Source: Polyangiales bacterium (GTDB lineage: Bacteria > Myxococcota_A > Polyangia > Polyangiales > Polyangiaceae). Taken from it: a stretch of DNA of 64,000 nucleotides. The number at the start of each line of letters is the position of its first letter. Within the stretch, counting starts at the first letter, position 1. The notes beneath the pieces are model-generated. The model saw only the letters and a list, made by a program, of their open reading frames with translations. It had not been told where the DNA came from and did not search any database. Location: NCBI GenBank assembly GCA_038231275.1, contig JBBRLQ010000038.1:1-64000 (forward strand), in the 5' to 3' direction. This document shows, in pieces, positions 18,344 to 21,999 of the stretch. Both the position numbers and the translations under genes were made by a program.

Positions 18344-19855
18344 GTGACGCAAACCCTCGAAGACACCTACAACGACGTCCCCTACGAGGGACAGAGCTTC
18401 CCGCAATCGCACCCCGATCGCCTGGCAACGCTCGCACGCCTGCGCGGAATCGACGCCGCACCCATCACGAGCGCGCGCGTCCTCGAGATCGGCTGCGGCC
18501 CCGCCGGCAACCTCGCGCCGATGGCAGAGTCACTCCCTGGCGCGCGCTTCGTCGGCATCGACATCGCAAAGAAGCACGTCGAGCTGGGGGCGGAGCGCAT
18601 CGCGGCCGCGGGGATCGGCAACGTCGAGCTTCGTCAGGCCGATCTCACCGAGGTCGGCGATTCCCTTGGCACCTTCGATTACGTCATCGCGCATGGGGTC
18701 TACTCGTGGGTTCCTCCGCACGTGGCCGATCATCTCCTCGCGCTCGTCGCGCGGAGCTTGTCGCCGAACGGTGTCGCGTACGTCAGCTACAACACGCTGC
18801 CCGGCTGGTATGGCCGCGGCGTAATCCGCGATCTGATGCGCTTTCACGCCGACGCCACAAGCGCGATGGCCACCCGCGTCGAGCGCGGCCGCGAAGCGCT
18901 GACCTGGCTGAAAGAGACGCTGCCCGACGGTGGTCGCTACGCTCAACCGCTCGTCCAAGACATCGCCAACATCACGAAGGACACCGACTGGTACCTCGCG
19001 CACGAGCTCATGTGCGAGGACAACCACCCCGCCTATTTCGCCGAGCTCGTCACGCGCGCCGCGAAGCATGGGCTCCGGTACGTCGACGACGCGAGCCCCG
19101 AGATCACTGCCGAGCACGGCGCGACGCCGCTCGCTGCCAAGGCCCGCGACCAAGGTGCCGGCGATCCGATCCGCGCCGAGCAGTACTTCGATTTCCTCCA
19201 CGGGCGAACGTTCCGACGCGCGATCCTGTGCCGCGCGTCCGTCGACGTCGCGCGGAGCACGTCCGCCCTGATCGTTGACGAGCTGCGCGTGAGCTCGCGC
19301 CTCGAGCCGACGAAGCCGGATCCCGACATCAAGCGCCGTGCACAGGTCGCGTTCTCCGGAGTGAACGGGGAGATCGTATGCGACCATCCCCTGACCAAGG
19401 CCGCCCTCGTGCACCTCGCCGAAGTCGCTCCCGGGTCGCTGCCATTTCCCGAGCTGATCGCCGCCGCGCGCACGCGCCTTGGCGACGCGAAGGCATCCGA
19501 TCGCGATGTCGATCTGCTGCGGCGGTTCCTCCTCCGTTCGTTTCTGACGACGGGGAGCAATACGATCGAGCTTCGCACGTTCCAGGCGCAGATGGTGTCG
19601 CGCGCTGGCGAGCGGCCGGCGGTCACCGCGTGGGCGCGCGAGGAGAGCAAGCGGCACATTCGCGTGACGTCGATGCGGCACGAAGGGATCGTCCTCGACG
19701 ACACCCTCCGTATGCTGATCCCATTGCTCGACGGGACACGGACGGAAGCGGAGCTCCTCGAAGGTTGGACGCGCGCGAGGGGGCGTTCGTTCCTGCCGAA
19801 CGCGATGAGCGCGGCGCTCGGCGCGCTCGCCAAGAGCGCTCTCCTCGTTCGGTAA
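18344..19855 (+). CDS. Class I SAM methyltransferase with methyltransferase regulatory domain (PKMT-like)
   Basis: YNDVPY, VLEIGCG, FDYVIAHGVYSWVP, YVSYNTLPGW, EQYFDFLHGRTFRRAILC, LLDGTRT. Confidence 0.88.
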   Translation: MTQTLEDTYNDVPYEGQSFPQSHPDRLATLARLRGIDAAPITSARVLEIGCGPAGNLAPMAESLPGARFVGIDIAKKHVELGAERIAAAGIGNVELRQADLTEVGDSLGTFDYVIAHGVYSWVPPHVADHLLALVARSLSPNGVAYVSYNTLPGWYGRGVIRDLMRFHADATSAMATRVERGREALTWLKETLPDGGRYAQPLVQDIANITKDTDWYLAHELMCEDNHPAYFAELVTRAAKHGLRYVDDASPEITAEHGATPLAAKARDQGAGDPIRAEQYFDFLHGRTFRRAILCRASVDVARSTSALIVDELRVSSRLEPTKPDPDIKRRAQVAFSGVNGEIVCDHPLTKAALVHLAEVAPGSLPFPELIAAARTRLGDAKASDRDVDLLRRFLLRSFLTTGSNTIELRTFQAQMVSRAGERPAVTAWAREESKRHIRVTSMRHEGIVLDDTLRMLIPLLDGTRTEAELLEGWTRARGRSFLPNAMSAALGALAKSALLVR

Positions 19856-19920: not shown

Positions 19921-20415
19921 CTAGGCGCCGCGGCTGACGGGAACGAGCGCCGTCGGAACGGCTGCCAGCCCGAGCGCCAAGCCCATCGCGGCGATCCCGC
20001 CCACGCCGACGAGCACGCACCCGAGGGCACCGGCGAGCGCGGCGACGAAGGACGCGACGAGGACGAACTCGAGCTTCTTGGCAGCGCGCGTGCGGGCGAC
20101 GGCTCCGAGGGCGAGGCCGGCGGCGATCCCGGCCGCGACGCACGCCGCAGGGACGGGGCACGCGATCGGGACGAGGCACGCGAACACGCCGCCTGCGAAG
20201 CCCGCCTTGGCCGCCGTCCCGAGCACGCCGCCGCGCCAGGTGAAGTAGACGAGGAGCGCCGACAACGCCGCGGCCATCGCGACCACCGCGTCTCGGCGGA
20301 CGCAGGAGCTGCACGACACATAGGCGAGGAGCGCCGGGGGAAGCGCCCACGGCAACGCCCCGCGCAGACGCCCGAGCTCGTAGGCGCGACGGACGCGCGC
20401 GAGGGGATCACTCAT
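19921..20415 (-). CDS. Cys-containing integral membrane protein, candidate anti-sigma factor
   Basis: MSDPLARVRRAYELGRL followed by about 5 TM helices with 6 Cys; overlaps the ECF gene by 8 bp. Confidence 0.75.
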   Translation of the reverse strand: MSDPLARVRRAYELGRLRGALPWALPPALLAYVSCSSCVRRDAVVAMAAALSALLVYFTWRGGVLGTAAKAGFAGGVFACLVPIACPVPAACVAAGIAAGLALGAVARTRAAKKLEFVLVASFVAALAGALGCVLVGVGGIAAMGLALGLAAVPTALVPVSRGA

Positions 20416-20938
20416 GACGGCGTCTCCATTCCGCGCGCATGCGCTCCAGCGCCCGCGACAGGCGCTTGCGAAAATTCGTCCCGGGCTCGCGCTCGCCGGC
20501 GAGCGCCTCCAAGATGGTCTCGGCGTCGGCGGGCCGAAGCGCGCCGAGCACGTCGCCCGCGGCCTCGACCAGCTCGCGCTCCATCGCCGTTTCTTCCGGC
20601 GTTGGCCCCGCGAACACGGTCTCGGCGGCGCCCGGCTCGAGCGACGACTCTCGCGATCGCGACCTCCGCCGACGCGTGGACCTGCACTCCCACGCTGCCA
20701 CGCCGAGCGTCCACGCCACCGCGTCGCGCGACGGATCAAGCTCCCCGATGCGCGCGAAGACGCGGACGAGCGCCTCTTGCGCGGTGTCGGCGGCGTCGGG
20801 CGCGCCGCCCAGCAGGCGCGCGCAGAAGCGATGCACGAGAGGCGAGACGCGCTCGAACGCCGGACGGAGCGCGGCCCTGTCGCCGTCGGCGAGACGGACG
20901 AGCAGATCGTGCACCGCGCGGCGTTCGCGGGCGTCCAC
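20408..20938 (-). CDS. ECF-type RNA polymerase sigma factor
   Basis: LADGDRAAL, DAADTAQEALVRVF, AWTLGVA (region 2); FRKRLSRALERMR (end of region 4). Confidence 0.85.
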   Translation of the reverse strand: MDARERRAVHDLLVRLADGDRAALRPAFERVSPLVHRFCARLLGGAPDAADTAQEALVRVFARIGELDPSRDAVAWTLGVAAWECRSTRRRRSRSRESSLEPGAAETVFAGPTPEETAMERELVEAAGDVLGALRPADAETILEALAGEREPGTNFRKRLSRALERMRAEWRRRHE

Positions 20939-20941
20939 GGA

Positions 20942-21061
20942 TCAGTGGCTACAGATCGGGCAGCCGCACGCGTCGTTCGGCGTGAGACCGCCGCTCGCGT
21001 AAGCGACGACGGGGACGAGCGCCAGCACCGAGACGACCGCGATGAGAACGTACTTTTTCAT
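20942..21061 (-). CDS. 39-aa secreted Cys-rich peptide MKKYVLIAVVSVLALVPVVAYASGGLTPNDACGCPICSH
   Basis: Not in the ORF track. GGAGG Shine-Dalgarno 7 nt before ATG, classic Sec signal with AYA cleavage site, stop 3 bp before the ECF start. Confidence 0.8.
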   Translation of the reverse strand: MKKYVLIAVVSVLALVPVVAYASGGLTPNDACGCPICSH

Positions 21062-21274
21062 TTTCGAGCCTCCACTCCATCTAGGCGCGGCCACGCCGAG
21101 CGTGACACCGAAGCTTGCCAGATGCCCTCGCGATCCATCGTCGGGAGGCGCGGGCCGAATCGCGGCGAGTCGCGATTTCGGACGACCCGGGTCGCGCCAG
21201 ATCCGCGCGCCTACGGAGTGACATTTTGCTTATTTTTCCGACCGTTGCGCGCTCCCGCCGACGTTTGCCCACAT

Positions 21275-21303: not shown

Positions 21304-21999
21304 ATGAGGCACCTGTCGAACGCGTTTCTCCTCCTCCTTCCGCTCCTCACGCTCCACTGCGGCGGCGCGCCGGACAACCAAGAGCAGGCGCAGGTCTCCG
21401 CCGACGAGGCGGCCGTCACCGCGCAGCAACCCAACAACTTCCGCGAGCTCAAGACGAGCGAAGGAAGGTCGCAGGGCCTCTACGCCGGCGGCCATCCGCA
21501 CAAGGAGGGCGTCGCATACCTCGCCGACAAGGGCGTCCACACGGACCTGAGCCTGCAGACCGCCGAGGAGCTCGCGTTCTGGGATCACGAGGTCGACTGG
21601 GGGGCGTTCTTCCACTTCGAGAGCTCCGAGCACAAGTCCGTCACCGATCGCGGCATGGAGTACATCCGCAAGAGCTGGCTCGCGAGCCAGGTGAAGGACA
21701 TGGCCTACGTCGACGACGTGCTCGCCATCATGGCCGACCACTCGAAGCGTCCGCTCTACCTCCACTGCGAGTACGGCGCGGATCGCACCGGCGCTGTCAT
21801 CGCCATGCACCGCGTCGTCAACGAGGGCTGGGACGGCGCCGAGGCGTTCCACGAGTGGCGCGACAACACCGGACGCTGCGGCAAGTACCGCGCGCCCGAG
21901 GAGACGTTCAACGACAAGCTCGCCGAGATGTTCAAGAAGACCGGCGACCGTCGCTACGACTTCGCGATCAAGACGGCGCCCGCCTGCAGCAACCAGTAA
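21304..21999 (+). CDS. Exported Cys-dependent (PTP/dual-specificity-like) phosphatase, probable lipoprotein
   Basis: Signal peptide ending LTLHC; catalytic loop HCEYGADRTG (CX5R). Confidence 0.85.
   Translation: MRHLSNAFLLLLPLLTLHCGGAPDNQEQAQVSADEAAVTAQQPNNFRELKTSEGRSQGLYAGGHPHKEGVAYLADKGVHTDLSLQTAEELAFWDHEVDWGAFFHFESSEHKSVTDRGMEYIRKSWLASQVKDMAYVDDVLAIMADHSKRPLYLHCEYGADRTGAVIAMHRVVNEGWDGAEAFHEWRDNTGRCGKYRAPEETFNDKLAEMFKKTGDRRYDFAIKTAPACSNQ

Follow-up and report, generated by a model that had tools for sequence, protein, structure and literature searches.

A conserved ECF σ factor operon with a predicted secreted Cys-rich peptide and a possible role in envelope copper stress

What does a gene of only 39 codons, encoding a putatively exported peptide with three Cys residues, contribute when it stands in front of a gene for an extracytoplasmic function (ECF) σ factor and a gene for a Cys-containing membrane protein? 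This question is raised by a 64,000-nucleotide stretch of DNA from a Polyangiales bacterium (here called the window), which is contig C38 of a 9.28-Mb genome (G000). A first-pass annotation of the window had proposed that the three genes form a compact metal- or thiol-stress module, in which the peptide is either a periplasmic mini-metallothionein or the ligand of a membrane anti-σ factor. All three genes are present in the order claimed, and we propose, with a probability of roughly 0.6, that the unit is a self-regulating alarm for copper (soft-metal) stress in the envelope with an exported thiol peptide as its minimal output. The wiring of a σ factor, an anti-σ factor and their own promoter is highly probable; copper as the signal and the peptide as a buffer are the weaker steps. 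To the earlier annotation the analysis adds a promoter, a link to copper genes, a six-Cys norm for the peptide family and a shortened σ region 4.

Gene order, conservation and a shared promoter

All three genes lie on the minus strand, with the peptide gene first, the σ factor gene starting 3 bp after its end and the membrane protein gene overlapping the σ factor gene by 8 bp; a promoter-like motif lies ahead of the unit (Table 1). The genome holds a single copy of each gene, a second copy of the peptide not being found in the 9.28 Mb, and scans for σ70 promoters and for terminators gave no matches. The GGAGG ahead of the peptide start, described in the annotation as unusual in the window, occurs 5′ of only 2 of the 38 open reading frames (ORFs) of at least 100 aa, as roughly called. 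In a genome of the same genus (G236), the peptide gene differs by ten synonymous and seven non-synonymous codon changes; of the 23 base changes, 13 fall at codon position 3, and the three Cys are all kept.

Among 301 genomes of the order, 28 contain relatives of the membrane protein, and a profile search found relatives in 36 of 401 genomes of the phylum; 188 clusters at 50% identity match the protein. After removal of six duplicates, three NrsF loci and two loci (L027 and L028) with weak membrane protein matches near E 9e-4 and no ECF σ factor, an ECF gene lay directly upstream of the membrane protein gene at all 52 loci, and at 42 of these an ORF for a Cys-rich protein with a signal peptide preceded the ECF gene. 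A σ factor-based scan yielded 37 further named loci, from Sorangium, Polyangium, Archangium, Sandaracinus, Nannocystaceae, several Acidobacteriota and a few Pseudomonadota assemblies; 35 of these passed the test of ECF and membrane gene adjacency, 23 of them with a peptide. Counted together, the σ factor occurs in 88 related loci, mostly in Myxococcota and some in Acidobacteriota, with the signal-peptide-bearing Cys-rich peptide upstream in 65 and no such peptide in 23. The filter that recovers peptides at these 65 loci recovers none at 43 other ECF loci of the σ factor-based scan. Two peptides escaped the filter, a Cys-rich one of 80 aa (L204) and a two-Cys one (L218), and a marginal 25-aa peptide passed it at L017/L190. 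Only the σ factor and membrane protein genes recur at most loci. A single-protein locus scan of genome contigs found no close relatives among 600 candidates, and a metagenome contig scan gave 11 distant ECFs (26–34% identity), which were not used.

The family promoter, from a matrix of 66 relatives' sites, has the consensus GTCACG-N14/15-GCCTA(G/T). With the window held out of the matrix, the window site was the best in the 9.28-Mb genome, at 27.5 bits compared to 20.2 for the next. The pattern was present at 38 of the 52 loci, 29 of the 35 named loci and none of the 43 other ECF loci. At loci lacking the peptide, the motif precedes the σ factor gene or another first gene, and at four relatives' loci an ATG lies 7–10 nt after the CTA, as with leaderless starts. 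Fifteen extra sites scoring above 15 bits were found in the 88 wider loci (0.975 Mb), versus about 1.5 expected from the 15 sites in the 9.28-Mb genome, compared to none in 427 kb of other ECF loci and one in 101 kb of NrsF loci. A second promoter copy of 23.4 bits at L114:6256 (−) lies ahead of a gene for a secreted 44-aa peptide with two Cys and three His.

A σ factor with a shortened region 4 and its predicted membrane partner

The window σ factor matches Pfam Sigma70_r2 (E 9.7e-11), and this domain (PF04542) was found in 46 of 46 family members with no region 1 or 3, as in group IV ECFs. No canonical region 4 with a full helix-turn-helix (HTH) was recovered, since Pfam r4 and r4_2 matched none of the 46, and 25 of 30 Atlas neighbours likewise carried region 2 only. 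The best Foldseek matches were SigW and σE; Foldseek and hidden Markov model searches together matched SigW, σE, ShbA and AlgU. The span from L134 to R157 is 24 aa in the window σ factor and 23–31 aa in 83 of 83 members, which is 3–11 shorter than the 34 aa of all 59 canonical ECFs compared (43 others and 16 linked to NrsF, from which one non-ECF row had been removed). Alignment to the solved ShbA and RpoE places an insertion of 8–10 residues at their first HTH helix, and the AlphaFold2 model shows a helix at 136–147, a six-residue coil and a helix at 154–175, with a predicted local distance difference test (pLDDT) score of about 90 there. Region 4 is therefore predicted to lack the first HTH helix, the loss of which explains why Pfam misses it.

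Within the remaining helix, R157, K158 and R162 are invariant in 46 rows and R159 nearly so. In σE, the recognition helix contacts bases through R171, S172, F175 and R176, and contacts to the backbone are made by Y156 and E157 (PMC1540707). The R-x4-R spacing of the family matches that of R171 and R176, which suggests by analogy that the base-reading helix is kept and that the lost helix would have carried backbone contacts. Because the 2021 ECF census required Pfam matches to both domains (PMC7826278), this σ group would have been filtered out. A literature search that covered few subscription journals found no description of the module or of an ECF lacking the first HTH helix, which does not prove that none exists. 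The annotation's view of a compact σ/anti-σ module with a predicted secreted Cys peptide and no modifying enzyme is supported, and the module is conserved and apparently undescribed.

The membrane protein carries six Cys (C35, C38, C80, C86, C92 and C133), as annotated, but its AlphaFold2 model has six helices (mean pLDDT 88.6) rather than about five. It has no Pfam or NCBIfam family above cut-off. Among 150 of the 153 full-length membrane proteins, used as conservation rows, no shared Pfam family was matched, and C92 and C133, together with Y12, E13 and R16 of an N-terminal YExGR, are conserved in at least 90%. The mean number of Lys and Arg residues is 5.7, 1.8, 2.4 and 1.8 in the inner segments and 0.6, 0.8 and 0.0 in the outer loops, and we predict that both termini and loops 2 and 4 are inside and loops 1, 3 and 5 outside. 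With this topology nearly all Cys of the family lie in the outer loops, at 5.3 per protein; outer loop 3 has 14 residues in the window lineage compared to a family mean of 26.

Modelling of the complex of the σ factor with the membrane protein gave a score of 0.85 versus 0.01 for the best of three controls; of solved pairs, 116 of 157 attain the mark set for this score, compared to 2 of 215 mismatched ones, counts that are only roughly valid with the alignments used. The model runs showed 100% contact agreement and a partner pLDDT of at least 78. In the modelled interface, helix 4–19 and a WRG loop (61–63) cover σ residues 16–32 and 54–65, adjoining the acidic motif of region 2.2 (D48–D51), which is a contact to β′ (PMC8999054). 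The model supports the prediction that the membrane protein is an anti-σ factor binding σ region 2.

Despite the similar layout, the annotation's comparison to NrsF did not extend to family membership. HHalign against 26 NrsF sequences gave 1.9%, compared to 24% for a reversed control, and local, global and C-terminal-half comparisons (1.9%, 0.8%, 4.5% and 0.2%) all fell below that control; for this reason the protein is not filed as NrsF. DUF1109/NrsF (PF06532) matched none of the 150 members, and the three genes that carry it in G000 do not include the window gene. In G000, three canonical ECF–NrsF pairs lie at C7:122630-123816, C9:76829-78060 and C14:219301-220523, and their σ factors rank 3rd, 5th and 8th against the family profile. 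A Foldseek search with the membrane model found no solved anti-σ factor at E 0.001, and in a wide fold search (VIA) the best match was a designed cage (Z 9.4, root-mean-square deviation 6.0, 138 aligned); this lack of a specific fold match does not establish a new fold. An Atlas search with the membrane protein returned only unnamed Myxococcota clusters with low recognition, which is weak evidence.

The peptide as a probable output, copper genes and competing signals

The peptide gene translates to the 39-aa MKKYVLIAVVSVLALVPVVAYASGGLTPNDACGCPICSH, in which a basic N-terminal end, a hydrophobic core and an AYA-S site can be read, predicting a Sec signal and a 17-aa mature part ending in CxCxxCxH. 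Neither this peptide nor 23 relatives searched with it matched a Pfam or NCBIfam family above cut-off, the DUF2282/BUF-type precursor family included. The 66 distinct peptides comprise 39 with six Cys, 8 with three, 8 with seven, 5 with five and 6 with other counts; six-Cys versions occur in the cultured Sorangium or Polyangium copies (L095, L100 and L101). The tails are 30% Cys, are rich in Gly, Ala and Pro and contain 1.2% Phe, Tyr and Trp together; an AxA-type cleavage site is present in 63 of the 66, and the Cys follow 34 different spacings, most commonly CCx5CCx5CC and CxCx3CxCx3CxC. Since the relatives mostly have six Cys, the window CxCxxC peptide reads as a half-size, three-Cys variant of a six-Cys family, and its three Cys could form a metal-thiolate cluster only as a dimer. 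Odd Cys counts (3, 5, 7 or 11) occur in 22 of the 66 peptides and fit metal ligation better than complete disulfide pairing.

Several loci carry variants of the peptide gene. Long peptides with 10–16 Cys at L042, L044, L045, L046 and L053 come near classical metallothioneins but have signal peptides. Secreted two-Cys proteins of 136–142 aa take the peptide's place as the first gene behind the family promoter at L111:1524-1931, L121:4497-4910, L181:4163-4588 and L185:3409-3834. At L106, the first ORF, after 4770 (+), has a signal-like start but no Cys in its tail; a frameshift in a peptide gene or an assembly error may explain this.

The link to copper comes from the extra promoter sites of the relatives, 11 of 15 of which directly precede copper-type genes. 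These include genes for a multicopper oxidase (L181, L185 and, after one lipoprotein gene, L178); an outer-membrane factor, CusB and CusA (L181; L180, where only the outer-membrane factor was seen; and L107, after a small CPMHP protein); a cupredoxin with or without Cus genes (L103, L108 and L118); and CopZ-CopA (L189 and L193). Of the other four sites, one lies before a second secreted peptide with two Cys, one before a histidine kinase, one before an unknown lipoprotein and one before a locus edge. Families were assigned after searching 105 of 124 neighbour ORFs, and eight ATPases carry the CPC/YN/MxxSS Cu(I) signature. In their fetched flanks, 25 of the 88 loci have a copper-type gene, compared to 1.6% of 12-kb windows drawn at random from G000, and the copper-neighbour label requires 14 changes on a quick σ tree.

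We propose the following sequence of events. In the uninduced state, the cytoplasmic helix and the WRG loop of the membrane protein would cover σ region 2 beside its β′-contact motif, so that the σ factor could not join core enzyme. Binding of Cu(I) or another thiophilic ion to C35/C38, C80/C86/C92 and C133 may then free the σ factor, by analogy to NrsF, and the freed σ factor would read GTCACG-N14/15-GCCTA using a two-helix region 4 that has kept the base-reading helix and lost the first HTH helix. The first and probably best-translated gene would supply a Sec-exported thiol peptide that soaks up metal like a miniature metallothionein, buffering it and letting the switch reset. In relatives, the promoter would also, or instead, drive a multicopper oxidase, Cus-type efflux, a cupredoxin or CopZ/CopA, while in G000 the regulon seems confined to the operon. 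We regard the peptide as a likely output (a metal buffer) and not as the trigger, because 23 of the 88 loci do without it. Copper neighbours occur at 14 of these 23 loci compared to 11 of the 65 with a peptide, counts in which kin are not independent and five labels are doubtful. The metal-stress part of the first-pass annotation gains support from the promoter copies before copper genes in relatives and from the modelled σ–membrane protein complex. Gene order, conservation and the promoter motif are observed and the cover of σ region 2 is predicted; we infer the later steps.

Several observations weigh against copper as the signal or the peptide as its buffer. The 11 copper-linked sites represent about four lineages, the copper seeds were drawn from these same loci, and copper labels are doubtful at L110, L126, L176, L196 and L209. 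Because GTCAC and CTA were used to define the motif search, those columns are circular, and counts of the bare pattern, which covered only the longer of the two spacers, were close to those of its control in five whole genomes. The copper clusters of G000 itself (oxidase/Cus/ATPase on C16, CopZ/CopA on C4) lack a strong site, the best scoring 14.2 bits (C16) and 13.0 bits (C4), neither at the start of a copper gene, so that for the window the case for copper comes from its relatives. The window neighbours are a methyltransferase and a phosphatase gene, and 63 of the 88 loci have no copper gene nearby. Arsenic operons adjoin L095, L129 and L175, and L110 adjoins a non-Cu-type P1B ATPase and has a first gene that we take to be MerT-like. 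Two MNIO (DUF692) genes occur in G000, at C1:498975-500266 and C4:223517-224365, but none at the 88 loci; no MNIO gene lies in the window, as the first-pass annotation had stated. Finally, the capacity of a three-Cys 17-mer is about one ion, and the periplasm oxidises thiols.

Some of these loci have further features. The arsenic operons comprise ArsR, ACR3, ArsC-like, ArsI and methyltransferase genes with no family promoter ahead. At L110, the first ORF after 4604 (+) encodes a membrane protein with CAACC and a Cys-rich tail and adjoins ArsR. The C1 MNIO gene is preceded by a small Cys-containing ORF with a signal, likely a bufferin-type precursor.

The same wiring could instead serve periplasmic thiol or oxidative stress, with the membrane Cys forming a disulfide switch and the peptide acting as a sacrificial thiol or redox buffer. 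ECF16 members answer heavy metal or oxidative stress (PMC7826278), the 39 six-Cys peptides could pair as three disulfides, and the majority of loci without a nearby copper gene would suit such a signal. We consider this reading unlikely, however: the extra promoters precede copper genes and not thioredoxin, Dsb or Msr genes, no redox family was found at three or more loci among the annotated clusters, and a third of the peptides have the odd Cys counts described above.

A broad sensor of soft metals and metalloids (As(III), Hg, Cd, Zn and Ag), for which copper would simply be the commonest target, is in our view quite unlikely. The CxCxxCxH ending offers a Cys3His set, with which the window form would be apt for one Zn or Cd ion, or, by its three Cys, for trigonal As(III); the arsenic operons (ACR3, ArsC-like and ArsI) and the presumed MerT-like gene and non-Cu ATPase of L110 point the same way. 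Nevertheless, no promoter site above 14 bits precedes the arsenic genes, and the extra sites mostly lead into copper-type genes.

The first-pass annotation's alternative of the peptide as the anti-σ ligand has been weakened to very unlikely; in this reading the exported peptide, with or without metal, would bind the outer Cys loops and set σ release. It would fit the peptide gene heading the operon at 65 of the 88 loci and the window lineage having both a shorter peptide and a shorter outer loop 3, but the σ factor is kept at the 23 loci without a peptide, and the peptides are highly varied in sequence, Cys spacing included, in contrast to the fixed C92 and C133 of the membrane protein.

Lastly, it is highly improbable that the σ factor is a crippled region 4 mutant with its motif read by another factor (e.g. 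an ECF41-like σ factor, −35 TGTCACA), or that the peptide is modified by MNIO in trans as a bufferin-like RiPP (a peptide made by the ribosome and modified after translation): the Pfam failure of region 4 in 46 of 46 members, the TGTCAC-type −35 boxes of ECF41, ECF103, ECF250 and ECF288 (PMC7826278 supplement), the two MNIO genes of G000 and the location of some bufferin precursors away from MNIO genes (PMC12452194) would allow it, but R157, K158 and R162 do not vary, the −10 box is unlike that of the TGTCAC-type groups (no match to CCTA in the part of the PMC7826278 supplement searched), the motif tracks the family σ factor and is absent from the 427 kb of other ECF loci, no other gene recurs at most loci, and MNIO genes are absent from the 88 loci, with no strong promoter site at the G000 MNIO loci (best 10.5 bits, 3 kb away).

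Known systems, the window and wider meaning

The closest known system to the copper alarm proposed here is SigF–NrsF of Caulobacter (ECF16), in which an ECF σ factor is likewise followed by a six-helix membrane protein with outward conserved Cys, and in which an autoregulated promoter, the Sec-exported Cys peptides BufA1 and BufA2 and a link to copper and heavy metals complete the resemblance (PMC3511200, PMC11626156). The six membrane helices and conserved periplasm-facing Cys of ECF16 partners are predicted for the window protein too, and the ranks of the three G000 NrsF-linked σ factors against the family profile hint at an ECF16-like ancestry. The module works like SigF/NrsF but differs on four counts. 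Its membrane protein has no detectable homology to NrsF/DUF1109; its promoter is GTCACG-N14/15-GCCTA and not GTAACC-N16-CGAA (PMC3511200, PMC11626156); its σ region 4 is shortened, while ECF16-type σ factors keep the 34-aa span; and its peptides are unstructured-looking Cys tails of 17–60 aa with no MNIO or DUF2063 genes nearby, while bufferins need thiooxazole modification (PMC3511200, PMC11626156). With bufferin/oxazolin RiPPs the peptides share a Sec signal, as read from sequence, and a Cys core, but a linked MNIO (DUF692) gene was absent at all 88 loci.

The peptides also resemble metallothioneins, being small, rich in Cys and poor in aromatic residues, with no sequence match to a described metallothionein family in Pfam or NCBIfam. 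Csp1, an exported copper storage protein, folds as a helical bundle. SmtA/BmtA, MymT and Csp1 are similarly small and Cys-rich, with CxC or CC spacing and few aromatics, and MymT, like the window peptide, was a small unannotated ORF, found to confer copper resistance (PMC7558416). Described bacterial metallothioneins are discussed as intracellular, with Csp1 exported by Tat (PMC7558416); unlike them, the window peptide has a predicted Sec signal, is far shorter with three Cys, and is under ECF control.

Two other metal-linked ECF systems offer partial parallels. CorE and CorE2 of Myxococcus xanthus (ECF238) are myxobacterial ECFs linked to a multicopper oxidase and a P1B-ATPase, but CorE is its own metal sensor, using a C-terminal Cys-rich domain and a linker CxC, and has no anti-σ factor (PMC8999054, PMC3107203). 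The window σ factor has a membrane partner, ends 13 aa after the RA motif with no Cys there (its only Cys are C39 and C85) and lacks a linker CxC, so membership in the CorE-like groups (ECF44/ECF238), another analogy of the first-pass annotation, was rejected. In the CnrH-CnrY-CnrX system (ECF291), metal efflux is similarly under the control of an ECF, and copper genes lie nearby, but the anti-σ factor CnrY is a single-pass protein encoded upstream and the periplasmic sensor is separate (PMC7826278). In the window, one downstream polytopic protein appears to do both jobs.

On either side of the unit (Table 1) lie two plus-strand genes. The product of the divergent gene (21304-21999) is similar to dual-specificity phosphatases (Pfam PTP-NADK, Y_phosphatase2), and its hydrophobic N-terminus and Cys resemble a lipoprotein signal; G236 has a similar sequence at this position. 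The convergent gene (18344-19855) encodes an S-adenosylmethionine-dependent methyltransferase with MethyTransf_Reg and PKMT winged-helix domains, which is not among the recurring neighbours of the module.

Table 1. Positions in the window of the promoter, genes and predicted elements of the three-gene unit
Feature	Position	Strand	Details
Promoter-like motif	21081..21106	-	ahead of the three-gene unit
Predicted −35 element GTCACG	21101..21106	-	matrix from 66 relatives' sites, window held out
Predicted −10 element GCCTAG	21081..21086	-	14 nt after the −35 element
Shine-Dalgarno GGAGG	21069..21073	-	7 nt before the peptide ATG
39-codon peptide gene	20942..21061	-	predicted Sec signal, residues 1-22 (21061-20996); 17-aa mature part
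ECF σ factor gene, 176 aa	20408..20938	-	GTG start at 20938; region 2 intact, region 4 shortened
Six-residue loop (148-153) replacing the first HTH helix	20480..20497	-	AlphaFold2 model, span comparison
Recognition helix	20414..20479	-	invariant R157, K158 and R162, near-invariant R159 (alignment)
Predicted six-helix membrane anti-σ factor gene, 164 aa	19921..20415	-	six Cys, all on the predicted outer face
Cytoplasmic helix, residues 4-19, motif RRAYExGR	20359..20406	-	predicted contact to σ region 2

Taken as a whole, the odds seem about even that these loci represent an ECF group invisible to the census, with a two-helix region 4 and a new set of six-helix Cys-sensor anti-σ factors, which answers copper with unmodified, Sec-exported mini-metallothioneins of down to 17 residues, interchangeable with efflux and oxidase operons. 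If so, a σ factor can keep −35 recognition despite losing a helix thought to be fixed in region 4, and ECF censuses that demand a Pfam region 4 match would miss whole groups. The module would also add an unnamed anti-σ family with a predicted interface, and its exported metallothionein-like peptides would buffer periplasmic copper without the modifying enzymes of bufferins. Because its parts are small (one promoter, a 176-aa σ factor and a 164-aa sensor), the module could be rebuilt as a copper reporter in a laboratory strain.

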